Positions 5,588 through 29,968 are shown, numbered from the stretch's first letter. The stretch: DNA of 64,000 nt from Bacillota bacterium (GCA_036678685.1 JAZIHH010000001.1:81614-145613); one strand, 5' to 3'. Notes: generated by a model not told the origin, from the letters alone. Numbers and translations are program-made.

Positions 5588-6589
5588 TCAACCCAAAACT
5601 TCCTGGTAAGCCTCATAGGTGAGCCGGGCGATTCGGTCCCAGGTGTAGTTGGCCAAAATATGCTCCCGCAGCCCGCTGGGGGCCGGACTATACAACGCCT
5701 GATGCAGTGCGTTCCGGATCGAGGCGGCGTCGGGCGAACAATACCAGGCCATATCGCCCAAATATTCACGGGCGGTGCCCCGGTCGGTGGTGACCACTTT
5801 ACACCCGGCCAGCGCCGCTTCAAGATTGACCAAACCCGGTGTATCGTACCAACTGACCAAAGCATGGAGGAGACAGGCGGCATAAGCCGAAGCCACCCAG
5901 GGGGGAGAGAGGGGGCCCAAATATTTGATTTTTCCCTGCCGCCGGCACTCCTGGTAATACTGGTAGTCATTGACCGGACCAATAAGCACCACGGTTTTTT
6001 CGAGTTCCGCCGCGGCTTTGATCAGTTCTTTCTGATTTTTCCGCCGGCAAATCCGGCCGACGGAAAGAATAAAGTCTTTGATCCCGAAACGGTTAAGAAA
6101 TTTATCCGGCTTGGCGTAATAAAAGAGGGGATCCGCGCCGTTGGGAATGATCCGGGCGGGAGTAATCAGGCTGTATTTCTCCACCAGCAGCCGGTATTCT
6201 TCTTCCCCGTTTGGCAATAATAATTCGACTCCGTCCAGAATCTCCTGACGCAGGTGATCGGTCTTCTCCAACCAGGTAAAAAAGGAATGTTGCTCTTTGT
6301 CTTCAACTTCAACGTGGCGGAGGAACTCGGAAGGATCCCAGTAAATAGGGGTTAAGACAATAGGTTTGTTCCACTTTTTGGCATGCCGGTAAAAGCGGTA
6401 AGTCTCTTCCACCGGGATGATGTTGAAAATGTGAACCAGGTCATATCGGGAAAGATCCGGCTCCGGCCGGGGATCAAAATCCACTTCCACCCCCAATTTT
6501 ACTAAAGCCTCACGCATCTTGGTCATTTGCACGGTATCCCCGGCCAGGACCCGCAGAGCCGTAGCCCGGTTTTGCATTAAAACCCTCAT
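5588..6589 (-). CDS. glycosyltransferase, GT4 (group 1) family
   Basis: ORF 5588..6886 trimmed to the ATG at 6589 (MRVLMQNRA...), because the upstream extension overlaps the neighbouring gene's 3' end. The C-terminal GT-B signature ...DTPGLVNLEAALAGCKVV... is present. Confidence 0.8.
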   Translation of the reverse strand: MRVLMQNRATALRVLAGDTVQMTKMREALVKLGVEVDFDPRPEPDLSRYDLVHIFNIIPVEETYRFYRHAKKWNKPIVLTPIYWDPSEFLRHVEVEDKEQHSFFTWLEKTDHLRQEILDGVELLLPNGEEEYRLLVEKYSLITPARIIPNGADPLFYYAKPDKFLNRFGIKDFILSVGRICRRKNQKELIKAAAELEKTVVLIGPVNDYQYYQECRRQGKIKYLGPLSPPWVASAYAACLLHALVSWYDTPGLVNLEAALAGCKVVTTDRGTAREYLGDMAWYCSPDAASIRNALHQALYSPAPSGLREHILANYTWDRIARLTYEAYQEVLG

Positions 6590-6764
6590 TATAAAACAGC
6601 CTCCTGTCCCGCAGCCCGCCGCGAAGGACCTTTTTGTTAAATATATATGGCTCCCGGGCGCGAAAATACCTGCGCCCAACGATGGGGTCCCTCGTATCCA
6701 CAAAAAAAACAGGCCTTGCCAAAGACCTGTTTTTTTTGCCAGGTGGGACATACGAGTAGACGTC

Positions 6765-8624
6765 CTAGAAGTAGTAAGGCGGGTAAGGAACAACCACCTG
6801 TACCTGGAGTTGCTGGGCTTCGGTGAGTTTGACGAATAACTCCAGCACCACCTTTTGCCGGAGCGTCGTGGAATCCAAGAGCTCAAAGAGGATAGTTTCT
6901 ATTTCCGGCTTGATCCGCACATCCATACCGGGGACGGCCCCGGGAATATCCACAAAGGTGCTGAACGGAACATCTTCACTTTGGTGAATTTCCAAATTGT
7001 TTTCATTGATGAAGAAGATCTGTTTGTGGACAATACCCTGAATAATGATCTTGTCTTCGATTACTTCCGCCATTAACCGTTCCACCCTGGCGACGATTTC
7101 TCTGATTTTAACCGCCGGCTGGGTAAGGGCAAGGGTGCTTTCAATCAGCAGTTGCGAGGTTTGTTCTCCGACCATGGTATCGAGTTTTAAAAGGGCTCCC
7201 GGTCCAAGGGCCACGTTAATCTGGACGCTCTCCGTAACTTTGACAAAAAATTCGACGACAATCTTTTGCAACACCGTCTTTTCATCCAAAAGTTCAAAAT
7301 GGATAAATTCAATGGTTGGTTCGGTTACAACGTCCATTCCCGGTTCCGCTCCGGGAATATCCACAAAGGTACTGAACTCCACCTCTTCTTCCTGGTGAAA
7401 CTCGACATTGTCATGGCCGATAAAGAAAATCTGCTTGTGTAAGACTCCCTGAAGGACAATTTTATCTTCCAGAACCTCTACGGTCAAATCAATGATCTCC
7501 GCGGTAATATCGTCGATTTTTACCGCAGGTACATGAAGTGTGACCATGTTTTCAATTAACTCCTGTTTGGTGGCTTCGCCAATCACCTGATCAACACGGA
7601 CCAGCGGACCGGTTCCTTCCAGAATATTGATTTGTGTGGGTTCCGTTACCTTAACAAAAAATTCGATAACTACTTTCTGATGAAGCAAGGTCGGGGTCAA
7701 CAGGGTAAACAGGATGGTCTCCACCGTGGGATGGATCTGAACATTCATACCGGGTTCGGCCCCAAAAACATCGGCAAAAGTGCTGAAAGGTACTTCCTCG
7801 GTTTGGTGATGAACAATATTGTCCTCGCCGACAAAAAACACCTGCTTATGCAGCAGACCCTGGATAATAACCTTATCCATAATTAACTCGCTGGTTAAGT
7901 CACGAATCTCCGCGGTAATATTCCTGATTTTAATCGCCGGTTTAGCCAGGGTGACATTGGTTTCAACCAGCAATTGTTTGGTTGCTTCGCCGATCACCAC
8001 CTCAGCCCGCACCAAAGGATCCATTAAGATCTCTCCTCCTTTCCTTGATTCTTCATTACCGGCCTTGCCGGATTCTCTCTTTTCTATGGCCGGTGCCACC
8101 GGGGTATCCAGCGGGCACAGACTTTCCGGAAAGCCGGTTTCCTGTTCTTCGCCGGGATCAACTCTCACCTCTTTTTCTTTCCTTTTTTTGGCCGGGGGTT
8201 CTTTTTCCGCCTTGTTCACCCCGGTTTTTTCCTCTCCCGCCGGCCGCTTTTCTTCTGCCGGTTCCCTTCGTTTTTCCACCAGCGGAGCAAGCCCGGGGCC
8301 GGGTAACGATCCGGTTGGAAGATGGTCTTCCCTCTCTTGCCTCCCCTCCCCTGTCCGTTTTGGAGGATCCCTACCGCCGGGTCCGGTGGTCGTCCGCTGA
8401 ATTAGCGCTTTTTTTTTAGTTTCGGCCGCGCTCTCCCGGATTTCTTCCGGCGGACCGGCCGTCTCTCCAGGCTCAACGTATGTCGGGGATATGATCTGTA
8501 CGGCTCTGGTTTTATGAAGGGAATACAACCAGAAGGTACTGAGCGCCAGCAGAGCAAGGAAGATTACTAACGCCAAAACCCCTGTATTTCCACAAAAATT
8601 CCCCCTTTGCCGCCGCCGGGTCAT
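6765..8624 (-). CDS. membrane-anchored protein with a P/E/K-rich linker and three DUF3794/SPOCS-like repeats
   Basis: 619 aa. It has an N-terminal TM helix (GVLALVIFLALLALSTFWLYSL), a low-complexity region at residues ~45-205, then three ~130-aa repeats of the type VIGEATKQ...DKVIIQG.LHKQ.FF...PFSTF.D.PGAEPGM. Confidence 0.75.
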   Translation of the reverse strand: MTRRRQRGNFCGNTGVLALVIFLALLALSTFWLYSLHKTRAVQIISPTYVEPGETAGPPEEIRESAAETKKKALIQRTTTGPGGRDPPKRTGEGRQEREDHLPTGSLPGPGLAPLVEKRREPAEEKRPAGEEKTGVNKAEKEPPAKKRKEKEVRVDPGEEQETGFPESLCPLDTPVAPAIEKRESGKAGNEESRKGGEILMDPLVRAEVVIGEATKQLLVETNVTLAKPAIKIRNITAEIRDLTSELIMDKVIIQGLLHKQVFFVGEDNIVHHQTEEVPFSTFADVFGAEPGMNVQIHPTVETILFTLLTPTLLHQKVVIEFFVKVTEPTQINILEGTGPLVRVDQVIGEATKQELIENMVTLHVPAVKIDDITAEIIDLTVEVLEDKIVLQGVLHKQIFFIGHDNVEFHQEEEVEFSTFVDIPGAEPGMDVVTEPTIEFIHFELLDEKTVLQKIVVEFFVKVTESVQINVALGPGALLKLDTMVGEQTSQLLIESTLALTQPAVKIREIVARVERLMAEVIEDKIIIQGIVHKQIFFINENNLEIHQSEDVPFSTFVDIPGAVPGMDVRIKPEIETILFELLDSTTLRQKVVLELFVKLTEAQQLQVQVVVPYPPYYF

Positions 8625-8740
8625 GAACCCGGGTCAACCGGTTTGGCAAGATGCCAAAAGAAAAATTTGGGACGGTCCTGGTTGCTAATATAATATATGA
8701 ATTGGTCCCCGCTTGTGCTCATGTGGACAGAGGTCATAAT

Positions 8741-8762
8741 AAAAAAAGGACCTTGCGGTCCT
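8741..8762 (-). terminator. intrinsic terminator after the upstream repeat-protein gene
   Basis: On the minus strand, AGGACC-GCAA-GGTCCT is followed by T7, 6 nt after the stop at 8769. Confidence 0.7.
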
Positions 8763-8768
8763 TGCAAC

Positions 8769-11213
8769 TCAGAAACGTACCGGTTCAAAAACGACATTGG
8801 TAACCACTTCCACCGGCACGGGTTCGGGAATACCGTCATCCACCACATCCAAAGAAACCACTGCTTTGTCCACCCGGAGGATTCCCGGCCCGGAGACATC
8901 GGTGACGACAAAGATCTCTTCCACCACCACCCCGGTCTCCCGCAGAACCGGCGCTCTGACCAGAATACGCTCGGTGACAATGCCCGGACCGGTTACATTG
9001 GTTACCACATCGAAAGGTTCAGGAGCGGACTCTTCACCCCGGACTTCGACCTGAAGGACAATAAGCTGCCGGAGGAAGCGGCCGTCGGGCGACAAGGCGA
9101 AGGAGATATTTTCGATCTCCACTTCAACACTGATAGGCGTATCCGGGACCAGACCGGGTACGTTCACCAAAACCGAGAAGGGAACATTTTCGGTCACCGC
9201 CCGGACCACGTTCTCCCGGTTGACGAAGAAGACCTGCTTGTGAACGAATCCTTCCACCAGAACCTTGTCGTTTGCGATAATGCGTGCCCTCAGATCAATG
9301 ATTTCGCCGCGTACTTCCCGGATTTTTATAGCTTTTTCCGGTAATTCCACCACATTTTCCACGATGATCTGCTGCCGGCCCACGACAACCGCGCCCGGGG
9401 GTACAATGCGGACCACCTCAACGGCCCGTACGATCTCCGGGATTTCTTCCACTTTCTCGACCAGCAGTTGCCGTATGCCCTCGCCGATAACCTGTTCCAG
9501 CTTGAAGAGGGAAAAGTCCCCGGTAACCAGTGGGATCTGAATGGTCTCGGTTACTACCACCCGGGCCTGGAGAATCACTTTTTGTTCCAGGATCCGCTCG
9601 TCAAGCAACTTAAAGAGGATCTGTTCGATCAGGATTTTCACCTTGGCGTTCAAGCCCGGGGCGGCTCCCGGGATGTCAATAAACAAGCTGAAGGGAATTT
9701 CCTCCAATTGGTGGCGTTCTATGTTATCCGTGCTGATAAAGAAGATTTGTTTATGCAAAATTCCCTGGATGATTACTTTATCCGGGATCACCTGGGCGCT
9801 TACATTCCTTACTTCACCCACAATCTCCCGGACTTTGAGCGCCGGCCTTTCCAGTTCGAGCAGGGATTCCTTTAACAACTGTTCCTGTCCCTCGCCGATC
9901 ACTTGTTCCACTTTGAACAAGGGACCGTCGCCCGTCCGGACATGTTCCTGAATAACCTCCGTAACCTTCACAAAAACTTCGATAATTACTTTTTCTCTTA
10001 CTTCCTCCGGTGACAGGAGTTCAAAGAAGATCTTTTCAATAACCGGATGCACCTGAACTTCCATTCCCGGTTCGGCGCCGGGAACATCCAGAAACAGACT
10101 AAAGGGAATCTCCTCTTCCTGGTGACGGGCGAGATTACGCCGGTCGACGAAAAAGATCTGTTTGTGGATAATGCCTTGGACAATTACTTTATCCGGAATA
10201 ATCTCCACCTGGAGATCCCGTAACTCGCCCCGGATTTCATCGACTTTTTCCGCCGGCGTATCCAGGACGACGATATTTTCCACCAAATGTTGTTTGGTTG
10301 CCTCGCCGATGACCGCCGGAAGCAGCAGCAGCGGACCTTCACCCATTTCCAAACCGGTCTGTATAAACTGGGTGACCTTGATAAATATTTCCAGAATTAT
10401 TTTCTGGCTCACCGACCGCCCGTCGTCGGCCAGGCGGAATAGGATTTTCTCAACTACCGGATGGACCTGTACGTTCATTCCCGGTTCCGCACCGGGAATT
10501 TCGATAAATGTACTGAAGGGAATATCCTCTGCCAAGTGCCGGATTACCCCGTCGGTTCCGACAAAGAAGACCTGCTTATGCAGGATACCCTGGACAATAA
10601 CTTTATCCGGAATAATTTCCGTGGTGATATCCCTAATCTCGCCGGTAATATTTCGTATTTTCACCGTCGGCACCGGCAGCCGGGTAACAGGGACAGCCGG
10701 CTCAACCCGGGTCCTCGCCTCGCCCACCTGCACCCGGGCGCCCCGCAAGTCCCTGACTACCCCGGGAGGATCTTCTTCTATTTCATCGGCAGCAGAACCG
10801 TTCATCGTAATCTTCACCACGTTGGGATTGTAGTCCCCGGCAAAATCCGGTTCTGTTGTTTCCCGTTCCGGTGAAGGCTCTTCTTCTTTCACCCGGACCT
10901 GAACTCTTGTGGGGAGTACAATGTTTTTTTCCGCCTCGCCAATTTCCCGGTCCTCTTCCCCCTCCAGTTCTTCCTTCTTTTTTCGCTCTTTTTTAACCGG
11001 CCCGCTCGTACTGTCATCGCCCGCCCGGCCGGATTCGCCGCTCTTTTTTCTGTTTTTCCTTTTCTTCTTTTTCCCGTTGTTCTCTTTCACCAGTTCCTGG
11101 CCGTCTTCAGGGGGTTTTATCTCTTCTTGTACCGTCCGGTTTACCGGGGTCTCTTTTACTTCATCGTCGCCGGGGTTTTGTTGCTGTCTCTCATCCCGTT
11201 CTTCGAATTCCAT
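8769..11213 (-). CDS. highly charged protein with four DUF3794/SPOCS-like repeats and a C-terminal mini-repeat tail
   Basis: ORF 8769..11285 trimmed to the ATG at 11213 (MEFEERDE...), which has an AGGAGGA RBS. About 160 aa of K/E-rich N-terminus are followed by four ~130-aa repeats homologous to those of gene 6765..8624. Confidence 0.75.
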   Translation of the reverse strand: MEFEERDERQQQNPGDDEVKETPVNRTVQEEIKPPEDGQELVKENNGKKKKRKNRKKSGESGRAGDDSTSGPVKKERKKKEELEGEEDREIGEAEKNIVLPTRVQVRVKEEEPSPERETTEPDFAGDYNPNVVKITMNGSAADEIEEDPPGVVRDLRGARVQVGEARTRVEPAVPVTRLPVPTVKIRNITGEIRDITTEIIPDKVIVQGILHKQVFFVGTDGVIRHLAEDIPFSTFIEIPGAEPGMNVQVHPVVEKILFRLADDGRSVSQKIILEIFIKVTQFIQTGLEMGEGPLLLLPAVIGEATKQHLVENIVVLDTPAEKVDEIRGELRDLQVEIIPDKVIVQGIIHKQIFFVDRRNLARHQEEEIPFSLFLDVPGAEPGMEVQVHPVIEKIFFELLSPEEVREKVIIEVFVKVTEVIQEHVRTGDGPLFKVEQVIGEGQEQLLKESLLELERPALKVREIVGEVRNVSAQVIPDKVIIQGILHKQIFFISTDNIERHQLEEIPFSLFIDIPGAAPGLNAKVKILIEQILFKLLDERILEQKVILQARVVVTETIQIPLVTGDFSLFKLEQVIGEGIRQLLVEKVEEIPEIVRAVEVVRIVPPGAVVVGRQQIIVENVVELPEKAIKIREVRGEIIDLRARIIANDKVLVEGFVHKQVFFVNRENVVRAVTENVPFSVLVNVPGLVPDTPISVEVEIENISFALSPDGRFLRQLIVLQVEVRGEESAPEPFDVVTNVTGPGIVTERILVRAPVLRETGVVVEEIFVVTDVSGPGILRVDKAVVSLDVVDDGIPEPVPVEVVTNVVFEPVRF

Positions 11214-11374
11214 GAAGGCGTCCTCCTTTCTCCAACCAGTTTTCCAGCCTTCCTGCTGGTAACCGCACCAGATCTGGATGGACATCCAGACTAGTACATT
11301 ATATGCCGGTGGGGAAGGAGGTGCTTATGGTCGAAAAACTCCCGCCGGAATTGCTTACAACAAAAACGTCAAAA

Positions 11375-11400
11375 CAAAAACGCCCGCCGGGGGCGTTTTT
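11375..11400 (-). terminator. bidirectional-type intrinsic terminator downstream of the CAP-domain gene
   Basis: Hairpin ACGCCC-loop-GGGCGT flanked by an A-run and a T-run (AAAAACGCCCGCCGGGGGCGTTTTT). Confidence 0.7.
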
Positions 11401-11446
11401 GCGGAGGAGCGGCGGTGCCGCTCCCCTTCCCGAAAAGGGAGTTTTT

Positions 11447-12184
11447 TTATCTACCCACAAATAATTGGGTGAACATATTGCCATAAGGTCCGCCGGAGAC
11501 GATTCCCACCCCAAGGTAATTGAACCTTGGGTTCAGGATATTGGCCCGATGGCCGGAACTGGCCATCAGATTGGCATGGGCCGCTTCGACGGTGGCAGCC
11601 CCGGCCAGGTTTTCACCGGCAGTGGAATACCTGATTCCGGCCTCCCGCATCATGTCAAAGGGTGAGCCGTAGGTTGGTGAATTATGACCGAAGTAGTTGC
11701 GGTCGATCATGTCCTGACTTTTTTTCCTGGCCAGTTCCACCAGGGACATGTCCACCCTCAACTGCTGTAAACCAGCCTTCGATCTTTCCTGGTTCACCAA
11801 GTTCACCATCTTCTGCTCGGCGGCGGTCAGGTTGCCGGACGGAGCAGGAGAAGGAGATGGTGGATTGTTGGCAACCGGAGGTTTGGGTTCCGGTACCGGA
11901 GCACTTGGTTGCTGCGGTATAATGATGCGATAGTAATTGCCTTGGCTGGTAGAATTATACTTTGTCGAGTAGTACGTCGAGTAGTTCGATGACTGGTAGA
12001 TTTTTACGTTGCTCCGTACGGTGCAGTACGTGCTTCCAGCACCAGAAGTGCGATAACAGGGGTTGACACCACCTGAGAAATAGTATACACCGGCTGTAGC
12101 TGGAAGAAGTACCGTAAAGACTAGAAGGACGGAGACAATGATACTACCAAGGAAACGGGCACGTAATGAAAGAAACCCGGACAT
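11447..12184 (-). CDS. secreted CAP/SCP-domain protein (YkwD-like)
   Basis: Trimmed to the ATG at 12184 with a GGAGAG RBS. It has a signal/TM segment, an S/Y/N/P-rich linker and a C-terminal CAP domain (NLVNQERSKAGL...GHNSPTYGSPFDMM...SSGHRANIL). Confidence 0.8.
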   Translation of the reverse strand: MSGFLSLRARFLGSIIVSVLLVFTVLLPATAGVYYFSGGVNPCYRTSGAGSTYCTVRSNVKIYQSSNYSTYYSTKYNSTSQGNYYRIIIPQQPSAPVPEPKPPVANNPPSPSPAPSGNLTAAEQKMVNLVNQERSKAGLQQLRVDMSLVELARKKSQDMIDRNYFGHNSPTYGSPFDMMREAGIRYSTAGENLAGAATVEAAHANLMASSGHRANILNPRFNYLGVGIVSGGPYGNMFTQLFVGR

Positions 12185-12354
12185 CGAATACTCTCCTTTC
12201 AGTACTGCCCTTTCCGGTGAAAGAGTTGCGGCAACGATTTCTTCATTGTCTGGAGAAACCGGTGGTTGTCCGCCCTGCACCTCCTTTTCAAGACAAAGCC
12301 GCAACCACTTCGGTTATTATTTTAATTCACTTCCCGGGGGAAAAACCCTTTATG

Positions 12355-12385
12355 TAAATAAATACAGCCCTGGTAATCAGGGCTG
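12355..12385 (-). terminator. probable terminator after the GerE-like gene
   Basis: On the minus strand, CAGCCCTG-ATTAC-CAGGGCTG (8-bp stem) is followed by TATTTATTTA. Confidence 0.45.
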
Positions 12386-12479
12386 CACTCAACTGCAGGC
12401 AAAAGGACCAATTCGCGGAGACCGGCCGTTTCTTCCCGGAGCCGGGAGAGGGGTTCCGGCCGGCTTTCCTGGTTGTAGC

Positions 12480-12725
12480 TCAAATTTCGTCCAGTTTAAT
12501 GATCCCCTCTTTTAAAGCAAAGAGGGCAATTTCGGTCCGGTTCTTTAGTTCCAGTTTTTTACGGATGCTGGTTACATAATTTTTGGCCGTTTTTTCACTG
12601 ATGAAGAGAAGTTTTCCGATTTCCCGGTTGTCTTTACCGGCGGCCACCAGAGGCAGGATCTCTTGTTCTCTGGGGCTTAATCGTTCAAGGAGACCGGGTC
12701 GATGAATGTTCGGTGACTGAGCCAT
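12480..12725 (-). CDS. single-domain LuxR/GerE-family HTH transcription regulator
   Basis: Trimmed to the ATG at 12725 with an AGGAGGA RBS. The 81-aa protein contains LSPREQEILPLVAAGKDNREIGKLLFISEKTAKNYVTSIRKKL. Size and architecture resemble GerE. Confidence 0.75.
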   Translation of the reverse strand: MAQSPNIHRPGLLERLSPREQEILPLVAAGKDNREIGKLLFISEKTAKNYVTSIRKKLELKNRTEIALFALKEGIIKLDEI

Positions 12726-12859
12726 CTGCCCATCCTCCTCTCCAGCCGTCCTTCCGGAATTCCGGCGGGACGGATTAATCTGGTACATGATATGACAAGC
12801 CGGAAAAAGAGGTGAAGGAAGATGGAGGGTGGACGGGAAGTACCGGCCGTCCTCCCGGT

Positions 12860-14653
12860 TTACCGGGACTCTATGGCATTAAACGGGCATTTTTCCATAC
12901 ACAACCCGCATTTTGTACATCTTTCCTGGTCAATGGTATACGGCTCCCGCCGTTCGCCGCTAATCGCCTGTACCGGACAGACACGGGCACAAAGGCCGCA
13001 GCCTTTGCATAACTCCGGAATAATCCGGTACTGTTTAAGAGCGCGGCAGACCCCGGCCGGGCATCTCTTTTCTTTAATATGCGCCTCATATTCGTCACGG
13101 AAGTTTTGCAAAGTGCTTAACACCGGATTCGGCGCCGATTGACCCAGCCCGCAGAGGGAAGAGGAACTAATCACCCGGGCCAGCTCTTCCAGGGTCGCAA
13201 GATCCCCTTCTTCTCCCTTCCCTTCGGTAATCCGGGTCAGAATTTCCAGCATGTGTTTGGTACCGACCCGGCAGGGTGTACACTTGCCGCAGGATTCATC
13301 CTGGGTAAACTCAAGAAAGAAACGGGCCACATCGACCATGCAGGTGTCTTCATCCATGACGATCAGCCCGCCGGAACCCATGATCGACCCGGCATTTTGC
13401 AAGGATTCGTAATCGACCGGCAAGTCCAAATGTTTTTCGGTCAGGCATCCGCCGGAGGGTCCGCCGGTTTGCGCGGCTTTAAATTTTTTCCCGTTGGGAA
13501 TGCCGCCGGCCAGATCAAAAATAATCTCCCTCAGGGTTGTTCCCATCGGCACTTCCAACAAACCGGTATTGTTGATATTGCCGGCGATGGCAAAGACCTT
13601 TGTCCCCTTGCTTTTTTCCGTCCCGATCCTGGCAAACCACGCGGCGCCCTTGAGGATAATCACCGGGATATTGGCATAAGTCTCCACGTTATTAAGCAAA
13701 GTAGGTTTTCCCCACAGACCCTGCACCGCCGGGAAAGGCGGCCGGGGCCTGGGTTCGCCCCTCTTCCCCTCAATCGACGCCAAAAGGGCCGTCTCTTCCC
13801 CGCAAACAAAAGCACCGGCACCGACCCGGATATCCAAATCAAAGGAGAAACCGGTGTTCAAGATGTTTTTTCCCAAAAGACCATACTCCCGGGCTTTCTC
13901 AATGGCCTGTTGCAGTCTGCTGACCGCCAGGGGATATTCGGCCCGCACGTAAACATATCCTTGCCCGGCACCCACCGCATAACCGGCAATGGTCATGGCC
14001 TCAATAATCGAATGCGGGTCTCCTTCAAGAATACTCCGGTCCATGAAGGCTCCGGGGTCACCCTCGTCGGCATTACAAACCACATATTTCTCGTCGCCCG
14101 GGGCTTTCTGGGTGAACTCCCACTTCAAACCGGTCGGGAAACCCGCACCCCCCCGGCCGCGCAGGCCGGAGTCTTTAATCTCCCGGATCACCTCTTCCGG
14201 AGTCATTTCGGTCAATGCTTTCCCCAGGGCAAAATAACCGTCCCTGGCAATATACTCCTCTATGGACTCGGGATTGATTAGTCCCACATTACGCAGGGCG
14301 ATCCGTACCTGGCGACGGAAAAAGTCAATGTCGCGGTAGGACAAAACCGGCGCGGACGAAAGAGGGGAACGGTAAATTTTCCTCTCCACATACCTCCCTT
14401 TAAGTAGGTGTTCTTCAACAATCTCGCGGACATCATCGGGAGATACGTGCTGGTAAAAAACGCCTTCCGGATAGATGATCACGATGGGACCCAAATCACA
14501 GGTGCCAACACATCCTGTTTCAATAACGCGGATTTCCTCTTCTAAACCGTGTTCTTTCAGTTGGCGAATGAATTCTTCCTTTACAGCCCGGCAACCTGAT
14601 GAAATACACCCGGCGCCTCCGCAAACCAAAACATGTGCGCGAAATATTTTCAT
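12860..14653 (-). CDS. NuoF-like NAD(P)H/FMN flavoprotein subunit (HydB/HndC type) with a C-terminal 2x[4Fe-4S] ferredoxin domain
   Basis: ATG at 14653 ([13 protein letters not shown]...). It has an N-terminal thioredoxin-like 2Fe-2S domain, [23 protein letters not shown], and two C-terminal CxxCxxCxxxCP motifs. Confidence 0.9.
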
Positions 14654-14664
14654 CTTGGCTTCCC

Positions 14665-15216
14665 TCACAATTCATGTTCTAAAAATTCCGCCAGTTCTTT
14701 TTTTACCTCCCGGCGCAGGTAGTTCAGTACCACCGGATTGGTGATGTCAACTTCTTCCAAAACCCTTTTTATTTCCCGCGTGTCAAGCTTGTACTCCTTG
14801 CCGTTTCGCCGGTGATGGTAGATAAAATCCACTTCCGGATTGCCGGCAATTAGCGTCAGGAGTGTCTCCGCCATATCTCCCAGCGGGGGCCTGTCCCAGT
14901 GCCGGAGACCAAAAACCGCGCTGATCCGGGTTCCCCCTCCGGAGACCGGCTCCACCACCAGGTGCCCTCCGGTCCGGCAGGCGGCGGCCTGGAATAGCGG
15001 GAGCCCGAGTCCCACCCGCCTGGTGGTACGGGTGGTGTAGAAAGGATCAAGGACCTTTTGTCTGTCGGCCGCAGGAATTCCTTTTCCGTTGTCTTTAATT
15101 TCCACTTGCAACAGGTCTTTCTCCGCTTGCTCGACAATGCTGATCTCCACCAACCGCGCCCCGGCCCGTAACGAATTTTGTACCAAGTCCAAGATATGGA
15201 GGGAAAGATCCTTCAT
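14665..15216 (-). CDS. stand-alone GHKL/HATPase_c domain protein (no DHp or His phospho-acceptor domain)
   Basis: 183 aa with an N-box [14 protein letters not shown]1 DNGKGI and G2 GLGLPL. It is wedged between the NuoE-like and NuoF-like genes. Confidence 0.75.
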
Positions 15217-15272
15217 TTTCCTGTCTCCGCCCGTGGTTTGTACTAATTTTCACAAACACCGGCCGAAAAAAA

Positions 15273-15764
15273 TCATTTGTAACGTGCCAAAATTTCGGGG
15301 ATTTTGTCCGGCGTCAACCGGCCGTAAACATCATCCCCGATGGTAATCACCGGGGCCAGTCCGCAGGCGCCCACGCAACGGGTGGTGTCCAGGGTAAAAA
15401 GACCGTCACGCGTGGTATTGCCGTCCGTAAGGTTCAAGGTTTCCTTAATCTTGTCTAAAATCGCGGACGCGCCTTTAACGTAACAGGCCGTCCCCAAACA
15501 GACACCGATCGTATATTTACCTCGCGGTTCCTGGGAGAAAAAGGAATAAAAAGTAATCACCCCGTAGACTTCACTCAAGGGAATGCCCAACCCTTCCGCG
15601 ATTCTCACCTGTACGTCCCGGGGCAAATGGCCAAAGAGCAATTGCGCCCGGTGGAGCACGGGGATTAAAGCGCCCGGCTTCCCTTTGTATTCTTGCAACA
15701 GGTTGTCAAGTTCGCGGTATTTATCTTCATGGCAACATCCCCGGCAAGCAACTTCTGTCATCAC
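15273..15764 (-). CDS. NuoE-like [2Fe-2S] subunit (HydC/HndA type)
   Basis: 163 aa containing ...GKYTIGVCLGTACYVKG...TTRCVGACGLAPV... Confidence 0.9.
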   Translation of the reverse strand: MMTEVACRGCCHEDKYRELDNLLQEYKGKPGALIPVLHRAQLLFGHLPRDVQVRIAEGLGIPLSEVYGVITFYSFFSQEPRGKYTIGVCLGTACYVKGASAILDKIKETLNLTDGNTTRDGLFTLDTTRCVGACGLAPVITIGDDVYGRLTPDKIPEILARYK

Positions 15765-15862
15765 CTTTGCCTCCTTACTTTTCTATACCGCTCCCAACTT
15801 AGATTATCACTTTTCACTGTTTGTTACAATTAAACTACGGTCATTACTTTGTTAGAAAATTG

Positions 15863-16570
15863 TTAAGGAACCGGGAGTAGTGACAACAACTGGTCCCAGC
15901 AGGCGGCTTCGAGGTTAAATACGGTTCTTCCGCGGCCGATTTCCTCGGGACGATGGGCATCCGACGAACAGATAAAACAATAGCCCGGAAACTTCGCTTG
16001 CAGTTCTGTTCCGTCGTCACCGGCGGAAATCTCCAGCACTTTCCGGGGAAAGCAAGCCGGCAGCATACCCAGTTGGGAGAGGAGACTAAAGGAAGGGCGC
16101 ATGATATGGGCGGGATAAACCAGACCGCCCAGGGCCGCGACTTGGGCCACCACTTCCTCCAAGGAAAATGCGGTAGAGTTTAAGAGCAGGATTTTCTCTT
16201 CACCGATACAATTTCCTTCTTCATCCACCAGCATTTGTTGGCCGAAGTACTCCGGGCGGTTGACTACCGGCGGCAAACTCTTTTTAACCATCTCCCCCCA
16301 AGCCATGGCCGGTTCCAGCGCGGGAAAGAGACAAACCAGATGAACCTCTTCCCTGGTCTGTACTTCCATCCCGGGAATAACCCACAGATCCGGCGGGGGA
16401 GACGATAAAAAAGCCGGCAGGTTTCCCGTACTGTTATGATCGGTGATGGCAATGATTTTCAAGCCGGCTTCCCGGGCCCGGGAAAATATCCGGGGCGGGT
16501 CCATTTCCCTCTCGGCGCACGGGGAAAGGGCGGTATGGATATGAAGGTCGGCCGGAAAAAACGGACTCAT
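15863..16570 (-). CDS. PHP-domain metal-dependent phosphoesterase
   Basis: 235 aa with ADLHIHTALSPCA and ITDHNS, which are PHP metal-ligand motifs. Its start overlaps the upstream stop by 4 nt. Confidence 0.75.
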   Translation of the reverse strand: MSPFFPADLHIHTALSPCAEREMDPPRIFSRAREAGLKIIAITDHNSTGNLPAFLSSPPPDLWVIPGMEVQTREEVHLVCLFPALEPAMAWGEMVKKSLPPVVNRPEYFGQQMLVDEEGNCIGEEKILLLNSTAFSLEEVVAQVAALGGLVYPAHIMRPSFSLLSQLGMLPACFPRKVLEISAGDDGTELQAKFPGYCFICSSDAHRPEEIGRGRTVFNLEAACWDQLLSLLPVP

Positions 16571-16911
16571 TTTCCTTCCTCTAATAACGCCCGGTAGAGG
16601 CGGCCGGCAGTCTCAAAGGTCGGCAAGGAAGTAGCCAGCAAGACAATGCCTTCCGCCCGCGCCCGTTCCACGGTGGAAGGATCGGGCGTACTCCCGGCGG
16701 TAAATAAAACAGCGGCCAAATTTAACAGCAAAGCTACGGCCGCTACGTTGGTGTGGGTCTGAATGGTCAACCAGACCTGCCCTTCTTCCGCATGCCCCAT
16801 GACGTCGCTGAGTAAATCGGAAACATATACTCCCCGGCAGACCCGGTCCATTTTATCTTCACCGGTAATAACCCGGGCGGCGGTTATTTCCACTACTTTT
16901 TGTAAATTCAC
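16567..16911 (-). CDS. DRTGG-like domain protein
   Basis: 114 aa, paralogous to gene 18712..19080. I recall this family accompanying hydrogenase regulatory clusters. It overlaps both neighbours by 4 nt. Confidence 0.55.
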   Translation of the reverse strand: MNLQKVVEITAARVITGEDKMDRVCRGVYVSDLLSDVMGHAEEGQVWLTIQTHTNVAAVALLLNLAAVLFTAGSTPDPSTVERARAEGIVLLATSLPTFETAGRLYRALLEEGK

Positions 16912-18263
16912 TTTTTTCCCTCCTTCTCCGTTTCCGGTCTCAAAGTCTGCGGCCGTTTTTGCGAAAAAATCAGTAACTTACGGGCCAACTCCTCCAGTTC
17001 CTCCCGCAAAATGAAGATACAGTCGGATAACTGGGCATTACCCTGGACAATATCTTCGGCCAAAGAACGACAGGTGGGAGAACCGCAGGCGCCGCAATCC
17101 AGCCCCGGCAGTTGGGTCATTAATTGGCCAATCTTCTCCATTTTCCGGATCGCCACACTTAAATCTTTATCCAGCTGCAAGGCGGGCCGGGCCGTCAATT
17201 CTTCCGTCCAGTAGAAAAAAGACTGCGGGTATAGTGTCCGGCCCAAAGCCGAAACCTCCGCCGGTAACTTCTTGTCGCCGGCCGCTTCCGCCAGTTTCCT
17301 GATTTTCACCCGGGCGACAAAAGGATTTTCCACGGTCAACGCTCCGCCCACACACCCTTCCTGGCAAGCCATGGCCTCAATATAATCGATATCGTTGAGC
17401 TTGTCCATTTCTATTTCTTCCAGAAGGGCGGCCACATTATGGATCCCGTCAACCGACAAGGCATTTTCCCATTTGACCGCGACACTCTCCCCTCCCGCCC
17501 GGGCCCAACCAATGCCCACCCCGGTACTTTTGGGCTCCACCTTTGCCTTTTCCCCGGTTTCCACTTGCTCCTGCAGCTTCCCGTAGAGAGAAACAAAGGG
17601 AAGAGCGCCGTCCACCCGGTAATCCTGTTGCACAGCGGTTTTAATCTCTGTGATCTTGGCCGGACAGGGGGTAATAAAAAATAAACCCACCTCTTCCGGG
17701 GGAAACTCCAGCTCGGGCAGGCGGTTACGGTAAAAAAGCTTCGCGGCGGTGACATACGGTGGATCAATGGGAATGATATGGGGAATCAAGCCCGGGAACC
17801 GGACCTGGATGAGGCGGACCACCGCCGGGCAGGAAGAAGAGATCAGAGGCAGGTTTCTCCGGCCGTTCCCCGCCGTATACTCTTTCAAGTACTCCCGTAC
17901 CGCATAGGTCGTCAACTCCGCCGCCGCCGCCACTTCATAGACTTCATCAAAGCCGATCCGGAGAAGCGCCGCCAAAACCTGGCGGGGGAGCACCCCTTTT
18001 TTAAATTGCCCGTAAAGACTGGGGGCGGGAAGCGCCACCCGGTAACGGAATTTTTTCAAGTCATCAAGCGTATCACTAAGCGCTTTCTTGGCGTGATGTT
18101 CACAGGTGCGAATGCATTCACCGCAATCGATACAACGCTCCGTTAAAATTACCGCTTTTCCTCCCCGCACCCTTATGGCCTCGGTGGGGCAGTTCTTAAT
18201 ACAATTGGTGCACCCCTGACATTTTTCTTCGGCTAGAACCACCGAATGGTACCTGGTCTCCAC
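16908..18263 (-). CDS. sensory-type [FeFe]-hydrogenase homologue (HydS-like): 2x[4Fe-4S], degenerate H-domain, C-terminal CX2CX4CX16C Fe-S domain
   Basis: 451 aa with CQGCTNCIKNCP and CIDCGECIRTCE. H-cluster-like motifs are SSSCPAVV, ITPCPAKITE and EAMACQEGCVGG. The C-terminal motif is LDCGACGSPTCRSLAEDIVQGNAQLSDC. Confidence 0.75.
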   Translation of the reverse strand: METRYHSVVLAEEKCQGCTNCIKNCPTEAIRVRGGKAVILTERCIDCGECIRTCEHHAKKALSDTLDDLKKFRYRVALPAPSLYGQFKKGVLPRQVLAALLRIGFDEVYEVAAAAELTTYAVREYLKEYTAGNGRRNLPLISSSCPAVVRLIQVRFPGLIPHIIPIDPPYVTAAKLFYRNRLPELEFPPEEVGLFFITPCPAKITEIKTAVQQDYRVDGALPFVSLYGKLQEQVETGEKAKVEPKSTGVGIGWARAGGESVAVKWENALSVDGIHNVAALLEEIEMDKLNDIDYIEAMACQEGCVGGALTVENPFVARVKIRKLAEAAGDKKLPAEVSALGRTLYPQSFFYWTEELTARPALQLDKDLSVAIRKMEKIGQLMTQLPGLDCGACGSPTCRSLAEDIVQGNAQLSDCIFILREELEELARKLLIFSQKRPQTLRPETEKEGKK

Positions 18264-19905: not shown

Positions 19906-21237
19906 TTATTCGTCTTTCTCCTTTAGGTCTTTATCCTTTAATCGTTTAATTCTCGCCCCCAGTTTACCCAGTTTTTCTTCGATCTTCTCATAACCGCGGT
20001 CCAACAATTGGACATCTTCCACAATGGTCCTTCCTTTGGCCGCCAACCCGGCCAAAACCATGGCCGCTCCCGCCCGCAGGTCCGGGGCCACCACCGTGGC
20101 CCCGGTAAAGCCGGGTACACCCTTCACAATGGCGCTTCTTCCTTCCACCCTGATATTGGCGCCCATCCGGATTAATTCGTCAACATAACGGAAACGGCCG
20201 CTGAAAACGTTCTCCGTCAAGACGCTGGTCCCTTCCGCCAAGGAAAGAGTGGCCGCCATCTGCGGTTGCAGATCGGTGGGAAAACCCGGATAGGGCAGGA
20301 CAGTAACGTCCACCGCCCGCAACCGGCGCGGAGCTTTGACCCGGATCCTGTCTTCATCGGCCTCAACCTCCACCCCGGCCTCTTTCAGTTTGGCCATGAG
20401 CGACTCCAGATGTTCGGGGATAATATCTTTTAAGGTAATTTCTCCTCCGGAAATTACCGCCCCCAAAATATAGGTTCCCGCCTCAATCCGGTCCGGGATT
20501 ACCGTATAATCGATGGGGACGGAACGCAAGGATTTAACTCCCTCAATGCGGATCATATCCGTTCCGGCCCCGCGGATCCGGGCGCCCAGCCGGTTATAGA
20601 AGTTTTGTTCTTCGATAATCTCGGGTTCCTTGGCGGCATTACGGATCACGGTGGTTCCCTTAGCCAGGATCGCGGCGGCCATTATATTTTCTGTCGCCCC
20701 TACGCTGGGGAAATCCAGGTGGATGTCGGCGCCGGTTAATTCCCCGGCCCGGACATAGATGTAGCCGTGTTCTTCCACTACTTCCGCGCCCAGCATCTGA
20801 AAACCCTTCAAATGAAGATCAATGGGTCGTTGTCCGATAACGCAACCCCCGGGTTGAAACAGTTTCACCTTTTTGCTCCGGGAAAGTAAAGGGCCCATCA
20901 CCTGAACCGAAGCTCTCATCTTGCGGACCAGGTCATCGGGGGCGGAATAACCCAGGTCGTCATGGGGTTTAATCCTCAGGACCGCTTCGTCCGCCCAGGA
21001 GACTTCCGCGCCCAGGCTGCGCAATACTTCTATCATAGTCAAGACATCTTTAATCAGGGGAACATTTCTGATGATGCATTCATTCCGGGTTAAAAGCGCG
21101 GCGGCCATTAACTTTAAGACGGCATTCTTCGCCCCGCTGATTGATACTTCGCCCGCAAGAGGATAGCCACCATCGATCTGCAAGCGTTCCACCGGCGTCA
21201 CCTCCAAAGCCACTGGCAGGATAGGTATTTTCTTCAT
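19906..21237 (-). CDS. murA: UDP-N-acetylglucosamine 1-carboxyvinyltransferase
   Basis: 443 aa with ISGAKNA and other full-length MurA features. Confidence 0.95.
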   Translation of the reverse strand: MKKIPILPVALEVTPVERLQIDGGYPLAGEVSISGAKNAVLKLMAAALLTRNECIIRNVPLIKDVLTMIEVLRSLGAEVSWADEAVLRIKPHDDLGYSAPDDLVRKMRASVQVMGPLLSRSKKVKLFQPGGCVIGQRPIDLHLKGFQMLGAEVVEEHGYIYVRAGELTGADIHLDFPSVGATENIMAAAILAKGTTVIRNAAKEPEIIEEQNFYNRLGARIRGAGTDMIRIEGVKSLRSVPIDYTVIPDRIEAGTYILGAVISGGEITLKDIIPEHLESLMAKLKEAGVEVEADEDRIRVKAPRRLRAVDVTVLPYPGFPTDLQPQMAATLSLAEGTSVLTENVFSGRFRYVDELIRMGANIRVEGRSAIVKGVPGFTGATVVAPDLRAGAAMVLAGLAAKGRTIVEDVQLLDRGYEKIEEKLGKLGARIKRLKDKDLKEKDE

Positions 21238-21308
21238 TCTCCGGAGACAGTAGATATTCTATGCAATAACCGGGCTTTATGACAATAAGCCTGTCCAAAA
21301 AAGGAATT

Positions 21309-22409
21309 TCAAATCGTCCCTCCCGCCGCTTTGGAGATATTGAGCAAGATCCCGATGGAAATAAGGGTAATCCATAGTGATGAACCCCCGGCGCTTATCA
21401 ACGGCAGGGTAATTCCGGTGGCGGGTACGGTGGAGGTTACCACGGCAATATTAATCAACGCCTGGACAATCAACCACGAGGTTATTCCCACCGCCAGCAG
21501 GCTGCCGTAATGATCCCGCACCGACAAGGCGATTTTATAACCGCGCCAGGCGAGAAGGAAAAAGAGGAATAAAATGGTCAGGCTCCCGATTAAGCCAAGT
21601 TCCTCGCCGATAATGGCAAAAATGTAATCCGAATGGGGTTCCGGGAGGTAAAAAAACTTTTGTCTGCTTCGCCCCAGGCCGACACCGAAAAGGCCTCCGG
21701 AACCCAAAGCCATTAAACCCTGGATGATTTGCCACCCGTCCCCTTTCGGGTCGGCCATGGGGTCAAGGAAGGTAAGCAGCCGCCGCAGACGGTACGGTTC
21801 CTGAAAAATCAGGGCCAAGCCCGCCCCGGCGCAGACCAGTCCCACCAGGGACAGATGAAACAGGCGCGCCCCGGCGGTAAAAAGCATGATAAAGAAGATG
21901 CTGAAAACAACTACCGTCGTACCAAGATCGGGTTCCAAGATAATTAAACCCCCGATGACCAGGGTATAAAAGAAGGGCAGCAAAATTCCGGTGGCGAAGT
22001 TTTTCACTTCGGAGCCGATTTCCGAGAGGTAATGGGCTAAGACAAAGATCAGGCCCAGTTTGGCGAATTCGGAGGGTTGTATGGTCAAAAACCCCAGGTC
22101 AATCCAGCGCCGCACCCCGTGAATCGCTTCCCCGGCGTAAAGAACGGCAATCAGGAAGACCGGCGACAGGATGGCAAAGAGAGTTGTCAATTTACGCAAG
22201 CGGCGGTAGTCAATCTTGCTGGTGCCGATTAAGAGCATAATCCCCAACAAGGCGTAGACTGCCTGACGTTTCCCGTAAAAAAACGGATCCTTGCCGTCGG
22301 TTACACTCAGAGCCCTGGGCGCACTGGCGCTGGTCACCAGAATAACCCCTAAAATAACCAGAAAAAGAGTGCTTAAAAAGAGAAAATGATCCGGGCCTTG
22401 TTTTTTCAC
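21309..22409 (-). CDS. SEDS-family peptidoglycan polymerase FtsW/SpoVE
   Basis: 366 aa, 10-TM SEDS protein located in the dcw cluster. Confidence 0.9.
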   Translation of the reverse strand: MKKQGPDHFLFLSTLFLVILGVILVTSASAPRALSVTDGKDPFFYGKRQAVYALLGIMLLIGTSKIDYRRLRKLTTLFAILSPVFLIAVLYAGEAIHGVRRWIDLGFLTIQPSEFAKLGLIFVLAHYLSEIGSEVKNFATGILLPFFYTLVIGGLIILEPDLGTTVVVFSIFFIMLFTAGARLFHLSLVGLVCAGAGLALIFQEPYRLRRLLTFLDPMADPKGDGWQIIQGLMALGSGGLFGVGLGRSRQKFFYLPEPHSDYIFAIIGEELGLIGSLTILFLFFLLAWRGYKIALSVRDHYGSLLAVGITSWLIVQALINIAVVTSTVPATGITLPLISAGGSSLWITLISIGILLNISKAAGGTI

Positions 22410-22426
22410 CCTACCTCACCCCGGTT

Positions 22427-23404
22427 TTATAATTTATAACCGGCCAGCCCCAAAAGGGCCAGCAGGGCGCCGATGAGCCAAAACCTGACCACAATCTTGC
22501 TTTCAACCATACCGCCCAGTTCATAATGGTGATGCAACGGGCTCATCCGGAAAACCCTCTTCCCGGTTAAACGAAAAGAAATCACTTGAATGATCACAGA
22601 GAGGACTTCGGCCACAAAAATCCCCCCGACGACCAGCAGGAAAAGAGCGGTCCCGGAAAGAATGCCCATTGTCCCCAAGGCCGCTCCCAGGGCCAGCGAA
22701 CCGGTATCGCCCATAAACACTTGGGCCGGGGGGCAATTAAACCAGATAAAGCCGGCGCAGGCACCGACGAGGGCCGCGGCAAAAATCCCCAAATCGGGAT
22801 ACCCGGCCAGAACGGCCAAAACACCCATGGCCAAACCGGTGGTGACACAACTCCCGGCGGCCAGGCCGTCAAGGCCGTCCGTGAAATTGACGGCATTGGA
22901 GGTGCCGACCACCACGAAAATAACAAAGAACAGGGTGGTCAGGGGGTGCACAAAAGGCAGGTACCAAGAGAAAAAAGGGACCTGCAGGGTATCCATAATC
23001 CCCGCGCGGATGACATAAACAGCGAGCAGGCCGGCGAAAAAAATCTGGAACAGCAACTTGTACCGGGCTTTCAACCCCAGCGGGCGGCGGTGGATAATAA
23101 TCAACAGGTCGTCAAGGAAACCGATTAAGCCGTAAGAGAAAGTAAGAAAGAGGCACCACCGGACCGCCGGCGTCCACGGCCGGCCCATCCCGGCAAGGAT
23201 ACCGGCGGTCAAGCCGCCCAAAATCAGCACACCACCCATGGTGGGGGTTCCGGATTTACGCTGATGGGAACGGGGAGCGTCCGTCCGGACATTTTGCCCG
23301 GCCTTAATTGTTCTCAACAACCGGATGGTAAAGGGACCGGTGAAGACGACAAATAAAAAAGCAAGCAATCCCGCGGCCAGAAAATTAGTCCAGGGCACTC
23401 CCAT
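22427..23404 (-). CDS. mraY: phospho-N-acetylmuramoyl-pentapeptide transferase
   Basis: 325 aa with motifs KxGTPTMGG, NAVNFTDGLDGLA and HHHYE. Confidence 0.96.
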   Translation of the reverse strand: MGVPWTNFLAAGLLAFLFVVFTGPFTIRLLRTIKAGQNVRTDAPRSHQRKSGTPTMGGVLILGGLTAGILAGMGRPWTPAVRWCLFLTFSYGLIGFLDDLLIIIHRRPLGLKARYKLLFQIFFAGLLAVYVIRAGIMDTLQVPFFSWYLPFVHPLTTLFFVIFVVVGTSNAVNFTDGLDGLAAGSCVTTGLAMGVLAVLAGYPDLGIFAAALVGACAGFIWFNCPPAQVFMGDTGSLALGAALGTMGILSGTALFLLVVGGIFVAEVLSVIIQVISFRLTGKRVFRMSPLHHHYELGGMVESKIVVRFWLIGALLALLGLAGYKL

Positions 23405-26278: not shown

Positions 26279-26347
26279 TTTATAACCGGCGACGCTCCTG
26301 TCCCCCCTCCGGGCGCCAAATAATTTCCATCAAAGATTAAAAGCCGC

Positions 26348-28456: not shown

Positions 28457-28483
28457 AGCTCACCTCCACCCTTTACCGGCCGT

Positions 28484-28969
28484 TCAATACCGGGTTCCGG
28501 CCAAAGTCCGTCCCACTCCGGACAGCCACCCCGCTATCCTTTCCATAACCCCCTGGTTTAAGCTTCCGGCCTCCGAACCTTGCATATACAAGGTAATCTC
28601 CGGTGTTTCCAGAACCGGCGGAGACAAAGCGGCAAGTTGTGTGTTGGTTATAATCCCGGTGGGTTTCATGCCCAGATTATTCAGGGCAATAGTTTCAATC
28701 CGGCCGCTGGAACTCAAATTGGCCAGGTCATACTGGAGATGGCCAATAATTTTTTCCACTTCTTTTATTTCGTTTTCAACTTTATGGAGTTGCTGTTGGG
28801 TCTGGGCCAGCAATGCTTGGACTAAAGTGTTGGCCGTCATCAAACAGAGCAAAAGGCCGGTAACCCGGATCAGGTTAACAAACTTTTTTTTGTTGAACCT
28901 CCGGACTCTCCGCACTCTTACCCTGCGCGGAGCCGGATAATACAAATCTTCGGCCTTTGCTGTTACCAT
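28484..28969 (-). CDS. ftsL: cell division protein FtsL-like (septum formation initiator)
   Basis: Trimmed to the ATG at 28969 with a GGAGGAGGAGG RBS. It has one TM helix plus a coiled coil, and sits between rsmH and the PBP gene. Confidence 0.7.
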   Translation of the reverse strand: MVTAKAEDLYYPAPRRVRVRRVRRFNKKKFVNLIRVTGLLLCLMTANTLVQALLAQTQQQLHKVENEIKEVEKIIGHLQYDLANLSSSGRIETIALNNLGMKPTGIITNTQLAALSPPVLETPEITLYMQGSEAGSLNQGVMERIAGWLSGVGRTLAGTRY

Positions 28970-28991
28970 TTTTATGCCTCCTCCTCCGGTA

Positions 28992-29933: not shown

Positions 29934-29968
29934 ATCCTCTTCCTCCTCGCCGGGCTCAGAGTGAGTGT

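Follow-up and report, generated by a model that had tools for sequence, protein, structure and literature searches.

A conserved tandem pair of multi-module SPOCS (DUF3794) genes with promoter-like footprints in an uncultured lineage of digester Bacillota

SPOCS proteins and the A/B gene pair

The SPOCS (SpoVID-CotE-SipL) superfamily (bioRxiv 10.64898/2026.09.03.749163; PMC11513918) is emerging as a common building block of clostridial spore envelopes, in which SipL organises and CsxA and CsxC form crystalline layers. SipL contains three DUF3794 domains and a LysM domain, the latter binding SpoIVA and being essential for function (PMC6436350), and its gene is σE-dependent, with ATA at -35 (PMC3789822). 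The crystalline lattices of CsxA and CsxC, exosporial or parasporal, consist of cysteine-rich trimers, for SipL a pseudo-trimer made of one chain has been predicted, and cysteine-poor SPOCS proteins have been proposed to act as organisers, not bricks (bioRxiv 10.64898/2026.09.03.749163). All members characterised so far belong to a small number of pathogens and model species. Here we describe two adjacent genes, named A and B, that encode three and four SPOCS modules, respectively, and that lie in a stretch of 64,000 nucleotides of a Bacillota genome (GCA_036678685.1 JAZIHH010000001.1:81614-145613), hereafter called the window. With a probability of roughly 60%, we read A and B as late, mother-cell-made scaffold or organiser proteins of the spore envelope, A being membrane-tethered and B soluble, with beta-sheet contacts between modules and a layer that is perhaps glycosylated; this reading is drawn from sequence.

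The original prediction, made from the DNA sequence, had described a co-oriented tandem pair of "giant" genes with three copies of one module in A and four in B, separated by 144 bp and a terminator hairpin. Both open reading frames (ORFs) were confirmed; they are located on the minus strand, with B upstream of A, and the 144-bp gap between them contains a hairpin and a T-run (8763..8746). The proposed identity of the module (PF12673, SipL/SPOCS) was confirmed as well. A Pfam scan detected three PF12673 stretches in A (E=1.7e-41, 140.7 bits) and four in B (E=7.8e-61, 202.7 bits), far above the gathering score of 23.6 bits, and the Pfam model, with only 78 positions, covers about half of the real unit. 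The motif noticed by eye (DKVIxQG.LHKQxFF ... PFS.F.D.PGAEPGM) was found in all seven modules. The features of the pair, with the module boundaries obtained from the analysis of period, identity and motif, are as follows.

8769..11213, minus strand: gene B, an ORF of 814 aa, predicted to be soluble, with four SPOCS modules and a 34-aa partial copy
10743..11213, minus strand: N-terminal region of B (aa 1-157), charged and of low complexity (E 19%, K 11%), with a KKKKRKNRKK patch
10332..10742, minus strand: module B1
9918..10328, minus strand: module B2
9507..9917, minus strand: module B3
9405..9506, minus strand: partial fifth module of B, 34 aa, FKLEQVIGEGIRQLLVEK... (FKLEQVIGEG...), the first strand of a module only
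8994..9404, minus strand: module B4, the most divergent module (35-38% identity to the others)
8772..8993, minus strand: C-terminal tail of B, 74 aa, valine-rich beta strands with short VVT(N/D)V.GPGI repeats
8746..8763, minus strand: intrinsic-terminator-like hairpin 3' of B, AAGGACCGCAAGGTCCTT followed by a T-run
6765..8624, minus strand: gene A, an ORF with three SPOCS modules, 619 aa from ATG 8624 or 603 aa from TTG 8576
8514..8576, minus strand: predicted N-terminal hydrophobic membrane anchor of A, LALVIFLALLALSTFWLYSL, then HKTR
8013..8513, minus strand: linker of A (aa 38-204), of low complexity and rich in E, P, G and K
7602..8012, minus strand: module A1
7191..7601, minus strand: module A2
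6780..7190, minus strand: module A3, followed by a conserved C-terminal PY.PYYF motif (P414 and Y415 invariant)
6702..6730, minus strand: hairpin and T-run 3' of A, ACAGGTC-tttggcaa-GGCCTGT followed by T7, read by eye

Anchored on the DK[VI]..QG motif, the module period is, quite exactly, ~137 aa across all seven modules. Pairwise identities between the modules are 35-60% for protein and 46-61% for DNA in register, the latter being lower than the 60-75% initially estimated. The pair of segments offered as an example of that estimate, 6931..6965 and 7331..7365, is 11 nt out of register and only 31% identical; the true partner of the first segment is 7342..7376, with 86% DNA identity over the most conserved motif. 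The repeat is detectable only at the protein level, and, as expected with a DNA identity of 46-61%, no 411-nt period was seen by Tandem Repeats Finder. The modules have acidic pI values (about 4.6-5.1), and cysteine is absent from all seven of them and from the whole of B. Outside the modules, the N-terminal region of B varies in length and sequence among orthologues, and the linker of A is missing from the 416-aa orthologues.

Age, distribution and predicted structure of the modules

Homologues at E<=1e-10 numbered more than 470 for B (~800 aa) and more than 550 for A, nearly all of them from uncultured digester Bacillota. The named homologues, which include those of Hydrogenispora ethanolica and Capillibacterium, carry only the label "DUF3794/SPOCS domain-containing protein". 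In order to compare the layouts, a hidden Markov model (HMM) built from the seven window modules was run over 76 related loci. At least 18 species-level genomes of Hydrogenispora/Capillibacterium-like Bacillota have a four-module gene with a three-module gene directly after it; the two genes are unlinked in a sister clade, and Dethiobacter and Syntrophomonadaceae have 3+3 tandems. For all seven modules of the window, the best match among the orthologues (57-93% identity) occupies the corresponding position, and therefore the duplications predate these lineages. The same position-specific comparison gave no sign of homogenisation among modules. The array is thus old and maintained, as had been proposed, and the gene pair, whose conservation had been suggested as a check, is kept.

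The copy number is a different matter. The prediction had given one to a few copies for the known family members, and had thereby implied that seven copies in "giant" genes were exceptional. A profile search that covered 1.84 billion representatives exhaustively returned 878 clusters at E<=0.001, in which three matched stretches per protein are commonest and four to six also occur; A and B are therefore ordinary members of the family in their layout. Three DUF3794 domains are present in SipL as well (PMC6436350), and one Halanaerobiales locus holds 20 modules. In the same search, B-type proteins were scored with five stretches, which is relevant to the partial fifth module of B. The pair is real, old and conserved, in a layout typical of its family.

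The longest array seen among the related loci is that of Candidatus Frackibacter sp. WG13 (L034, 793..13160), the Halanaerobiales locus with 20 modules, where seven adjacent co-oriented SPOCS genes have 2, 1, 5, 3, 4, 3 and 2 of them. Two other Halanaerobiales loci (L036 and L041) have five-module genes. The homologous loci are mostly labelled Bacillota, with a few labelled Bacteroidota, Patescibacteria and Desulfovibrionaceae.

In a diverse set of 81 family representatives, LysM was detected in 31, and the remaining 50 contain SPOCS alone, so the LysM-less SPOCS branch is large but uncharacterised. These counts bear on the possibility that one of the two proteins, most likely the three-module A, is the functional SipL/SpoVID equivalent of this lineage, an early basement-layer adaptor joining SpoIVA to the coat, with the anchor replacing LysM for targeting. 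The core of A shares the three-DUF3794 layout with SipL (PMC6436350), it is highly conserved (64-71% identical across clades), cysteine-poor SPOCS proteins are the ones proposed as organisers, and the 50 LysM-less representatives imply that other modes of targeting must exist. However, A lacks the LysM domain that is essential for SipL function and SpoIVA binding, and its -35-like element, described below, is AC instead of the ATA of the σE-dependent sipL. We consider this explanation unlikely.

The absence of cysteine is important for a second alternative, in which A and B would form an outermost exosporium-like or parasporal crystalline lattice, as CsxA and CsxC do, instead of a coat layer proper. 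SPOCS proteins are able to self-assemble into two- and three-dimensional lattices (bioRxiv 10.64898/2026.09.03.749163), and both proteins match the NCBIfam family CsxC_fam (NF045794) weakly. The scores of these matches are 29.5 and 35.8 bits against a cut-off of 135, and CsxA and CsxC are cysteine-rich and stabilised by disulphides, whereas the modules described here are cysteine-free.

AlphaFold2 (AF2) predicted an all-beta structure for the core of A, with a predicted local distance difference test score (pLDDT) of 85.4, and for residues 150-814 of B (pLDDT 88.5, reaching 95-97 over B1-B3). Each 137-aa module is modelled with six long strands of 15-27 residues (pLDDT 85-97), and the last strand of one module is nearly continuous with the first strand of the next. 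The partial fifth module is modelled as a strand (E415-438) followed by a low-confidence loop. In the N-terminal region of B the modelled part was aa 150-179, with pLDDT of 42-55 over three 10-residue blocks. SPOCS has been described as "two three-stranded sheets" (bioRxiv 10.64898/2026.09.03.749163), and the modelled six-strand modules of A and B fit this description in strand count, a comparison that does not extend to the grouping of strands into sheets. A comparison of the A-core sequence profile with PDB sequences gave no meaningful match (best E=0.095).

Membrane anchor, promoter-like footprints and gene neighbourhood

The original prediction that one paralogue is membrane-anchored and the other is not, from which a possible two-component layered assembly had been suggested, agrees with the comparison of orthologues in the matter of the anchor. 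Those A orthologues whose called start covers the anchor show hydropathy values of 2.0-3.0 (19-residue window) in the first ~25 residues, and B has neither a membrane segment nor a signal peptide. The anchor motif CTFW..LH is conserved in the clade (…ALIALCTFW..LH(R/K)…), and positive charges lie C-terminal to the helix, for which reason the SPOCS part is expected to stay cytoplasmic. In the sister clade (Hydrogenispora-type), the three-module core of 416-420 aa is directly preceded by a separate gene of ~80 aa encoding a single helix and a short tail. This split form is exemplified by L039 (small gene at 7704..7955 and core at 7995..9254), and it also occurs in L037, L040-L049, L054 and L066. 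Such fusion or fission indicates that the anchor is functionally tied to the three-module core.

Surface proteins, too, include repetitive all-beta chains that combine charged linkers with a membrane anchor, and thus A and B might be unrelated to spores and represent a vegetative cell-envelope or adhesin-like beta-repeat pair. This is very improbable, given that B lacks an export signal and considering the promoter and synteny data presented below. A membrane tether is also better suited to an inner position than to an exosporium-like lattice.

The start of A is unusual. Gene callers on identical contigs chose the in-frame TTG at 8576 (603 aa) instead of the ATG at 8624. The conserved Shine-Dalgarno sequence of A, AAAGGGGGA at 8608..8600 (minus strand), within the start region 8567..8608, is followed by GTG at 8593 in the window and by TTG in relatives (L001, L002 and L011). 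This codon opens an ORF of eight codons only, MEIQGFWR* in the window and MEPQ(E/G)LSG* in the relatives, in a frame that differs from that of the anchor and the SPOCS modules. The anchor frame is open and conserved; in L001, L002 and L011 it is shut just upstream by TAA, so the anchor has no canonical start codon there. In the subclade formed by the window and these loci, translation of the anchor may involve re-initiation, a non-canonical start codon or a change of frame by -1. Several gene callers omit the anchor in genomes of this subclade. The start of B is preceded by a strong Shine-Dalgarno sequence, GAAAGGAGGA at 11230..11221, 7 nt ahead of the ATG.

Upstream of both genes, a promoter-like footprint can be observed.

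11297..11325, minus strand: promoter-like footprint of B, AGCACC (-35-like, 11325..11320) and CATATAATG (-10-like, 11305..11297)
11214..11296, minus strand: 5' leader of B, ~83 nt, in which an invariant GGUGCGGUU separates a first hairpin, located at the predicted 5' end, from a second one, with the Shine-Dalgarno sequence last
8691..8719, minus strand: promoter-like footprint of A, AGCACA (8719..8714) and CATATATTA (8699..8691)

The pattern AGCAC-N15-CATATA(A/T)T has only two matches in the 64 kb of the window, located ahead of A and B, where 0.18 would be expected. Upstream of B, every one of the 16 tandem-pair sequences examined (15 loci plus the window) has the footprint, as do 16 of the 17 loci with a stand-alone B, and it also occurs in Halanaerobiales. 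Upstream of A it was found in the window and 15 loci, L007 and L009 giving no match. In the sister clade, an AC-N15-CATATATTAT footprint precedes the small anchor gene. Both boxes are kept across loci, while the sequence of the spacer varies.

The σK signature is a -10 element CATAnnnT with AC at -35, whereas σE promoters have ATA at -35 (PMC3789822; PMC9562818); the Bacillus σK consensus is MWCM-N16-CATANNNTD (PMC9562818). The -35 elements (CACC and CACA) and the -10 elements (CATATAATG and CATATATTA) of B and A match the two boxes of this consensus, but the spacer is 14 instead of 16, and because of this spacer we refer to the footprint as σK-like, an assignment made by resemblance. A σE promoter was rejected on the sequence, as no ATA element lies at a suitable distance and the conserved element is AGCAC. 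In a scan of 6300..11700, no σ70-type site was found upstream of either gene, only the CATATA-type footprint, which argues against a vegetative pair. A late promoter type would also suit an exosporium-like lattice.

With its own promoter-like footprint and its own terminator, each of the two genes is shown as a separate predicted transcription unit. It is important to mention that the terminator scan that found the hairpin of B did not list the hairpin 3' of A (6702..6730).

The leader of B is conserved, and its second hairpin varies in sequence yet stays paired. Its predicted fold has an energy of -30.3 kcal/mol (z=-1.9), and compensatory changes affect 4 of the 10 pairs of hairpin 1 (14 loci). 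No Rfam family matched in 6500..12900. The leader may act as an mRNA-stabilising or regulatory element.

Another element, CCATATATAT, is located at 6625..6660 (minus strand), upstream of the family-1 glycosyltransferase (GT1) gene, and is preceded by a GC-rich hairpin (GGGCGC...GCGCCC). AC is absent at the expected distance from it. This element may be another mother-cell-type -10 box.

The gene order around the pair is GerE-type regulator, YkwD, B, A, GT1 glycosyltransferase, DUF5665 and YteA. The neighbouring features are listed below.

12480..12725, minus strand: stand-alone GerE/LuxR-type helix-turn-helix protein, 81 aa (PF00196, GerE)
11447..12184, minus strand: YkwD-family CAP-domain protein (TIGR02909 score 176.5, cut-off 171)
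5588..6589, minus strand: family-1 glycosyltransferase after A (PF00534)
19906..30059, minus strand: cell-wall/division cluster (MurA, FtsW/SpoVE, MraY, MurF, MurE, SpoVD, RsmH)
31558..33681: PNPase

The YkwD and YteA families have been described for endospore formers; the YteA match (TIGR02890) is above its cut-off, and the gene lies near A in tandem-pair loci. The order GerE-YkwD-B is kept even when A is located elsewhere, and the linkage between A and GT1 is kept in both clades. Additionally, YkwD adjoins multi-SPOCS genes in very distant Bacillota (Halanaerobiales, Dethiobacter and Syntrophomonadaceae; L034, L036, L041 and L055-L076), an adjacency that suggests an undescribed functional partnership. 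SpoVD in the division cluster scores 710 with TIGR02214 (cut-off 688), and SpoIIM is encoded on the same contig, just past the window. SpoVD, YkwD and YteA in the window and SpoIIM on the contig are the findings that would be expected if SPOCS is restricted to endospore formers, and among Bacillota that sporulate PF12673 shows phyletic co-occurrence with both SpoIVA and SpoVK (PMC11513918). This co-occurrence, together with the synteny with endospore-former families (YkwD and GerE across loci, YteA near A in tandem-pair loci), stands against a vegetative or adhesin-like role. The spore link of the original prediction is accordingly supported by the conserved mother-cell-type promoter footprint and by the GerE, YkwD, YteA, SpoVD and SpoIIM neighbours.

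The glycosyltransferase next to A is an additional point in favour of an exosporium-like lattice. Exosporia are commonly glycosylated. With the weak CsxC_fam scores, the cysteine-free modules and the tether on the other side, we regard such a lattice as unlikely, to the same degree as an equivalence of A with SipL.

Two further observations concern the surroundings of the pair. In many relatives, a Pfam-less protein of ~675 aa is encoded between the A-type gene and the glycosyltransferase (L004 12499..14520; L039 9378..11432); it is absent from the window, and it was rejected as a SPOCS relative (~680 aa), its resemblance to the module being faint and non-significant. In the window, the region 12860..18263 (minus strand) encodes a NuoF-like 51-kDa subunit, 2Fe-2S thioredoxin-like proteins and a [FeFe]-hydrogenase large-subunit-like protein, as well as proteins with histidine-kinase-like ATPase and DRTGG domains. 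Together these resemble a multimeric hydrogenase that is possibly electron-bifurcating and has sensory components.

The host is an uncultured Hydrogenispora/Capillibacterium-like, putatively endospore-forming lineage of Bacillota from anaerobic digesters. The window sequence was found in DNA metagenomes only, from anaerobic digesters, biogas, sludge, compost, soil and biofilm.

According to the reading of A and B as late spore-envelope scaffold proteins, both genes would be transcribed late in the mother cell by a σK-type RNA polymerase, and the adjacent GerE-like regulator would probably modulate their transcription. Because B has no export signal and the positive charges of A follow its anchor, the two proteins are expected to stay in the mother-cell cytoplasm. 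There A would be tethered by its N-terminal helix and the flexible linker of ~170 aa, most plausibly at the outer forespore membrane, with B as its soluble partner. By analogy with what has been proposed for the CsxA/CsxC trimers and the single-chain SipL tripod, the SPOCS modules might self-associate by inter-module beta-sheet extension and so form, or organise, a spore-envelope layer, which the adjacent glycosyltransferase may decorate.

Several results weigh against this reading. The predicted template modelling scores (pTM) are low, 0.43 for A and 0.55 for B, so that a tripod or a rod arrangement of the modules is not established, and a Foldseek comparison of both AF2 models with the PDB gave nothing at E<=0.001, with TM-scores of at most 0.20; whole-chain multi-module models are probably poor Foldseek queries. 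The AC-to-CATA gap is 2 bp short of the Bacillus σK consensus. The start codon of A, and hence its topology, is ambiguous in this genome. The number of RNA runs with the window sequence is zero, and spore formation by the host is deduced from gene content.

A more specific form of the proposal can also be considered. A and B could together form a cysteine-free SPOCS lattice, tethered directly to the outer forespore membrane by the helix of A, a separate subunit in the sister clade, in replacement of the LysM-SpoIVA route of SipL and SpoVID; this would be a distinct mode of fixing a spore shell to a membrane. The orphan first strand of B, its partial fifth module, would be donated to a neighbouring chain so as to polymerise the layer. 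The start region of A, where in this subclade the anchor seems to call for a -1 frame change or a non-canonical start, would then be a regulatory device. We regard this tethered lattice as distinctly unlikely.

Comparison with described SPOCS systems

Of the original prediction, the family, the age, the conservation of the pair and the difference in anchoring have stood and the spore link is supported; the unusual copy number, the "giant" size and the DNA identity have not stood. The pair is not a new kind of system, and its copy number is unremarkable. What is new is modest, namely an uncharacterised architectural variant of a known superfamily, with a membrane anchor supported by fusion and fission and with conserved promoter footprints. 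It marks a well-conserved and unstudied branch of multi-module chains, without LysM or module cysteine and with one partner anchored, and it poses the question of what positions a SPOCS layer and keeps it together when neither disulphides nor SpoIVA-LysM contacts are available. The cultured relatives Hydrogenispora ethanolica and Capillibacterium make this a tractable case.

The "DUF3794/SPOCS" proteins of H. ethanolica, Capillibacterium sp. and many digester metagenome-assembled genomes are true orthologues with 45-90% identity and share the module order, promoter footprint and synteny of the window. The Hydrogenispora-type clade differs in that two genes encode the A core and the anchor, with the four-module gene at another genomic location.

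Two further members of the SPOCS superfamily, CotE (a trimeric tripod) and SpoVID of Bacillus subtilis, act as morphogenetic organisers of the coat layers. They differ from A and B in domain count, and SpoVID has a LysM domain and other regions. No sequence-level match to CotE or SpoVID was found in A or B, for which the Pfam scan returned PF12673 only.

CsxA and CsxC of Clostridium sporogenes (and also CdeC and CsA/CsB) share the SPOCS/DUF3794 fold with A and B. They are structural spore-envelope proteins that form ordered lattices through strand exchange between SPOCS units. In AlphaFold3 models, CsxA and CsxC have one SPOCS beta-barrel "leg" per subunit and three subunits per tripod, whereas A and B have three or four units per chain; and the cysteine-rich CsxA and CsxC are cross-linked by disulphides, unlike the cysteine-free modules of A and B. 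As their scores are far below the family cut-off and their modules lack cysteine, A and B are not members of the CsxC family.

SipL (CD3567) of Clostridioides difficile, after which PF12673 is named, resembles the core of A in that a single chain contains three DUF3794/SPOCS domains in tandem. The mother cell produces this cysteine-poor protein, on which coat assembly, the localisation of the coat and the heat resistance of the spores depend. At its C-terminus SipL carries a LysM domain, whereas the Pfam scan of A and B gave no LysM match, and the -35 element of sipL is the σE-type ATA, whereas the -35-like element of A and B resembles the AC of σK. Unlike SipL, A is extended by a membrane anchor and a long linker, and B has four modules and a partial one. 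Owing to the lack of LysM and to the AC-type -35 element, A and B are not SipL. Judged by their sequences, they are unambiguously LysM-less paralogues with cysteine-free modules within the SPOCS (DUF3794) superfamily.

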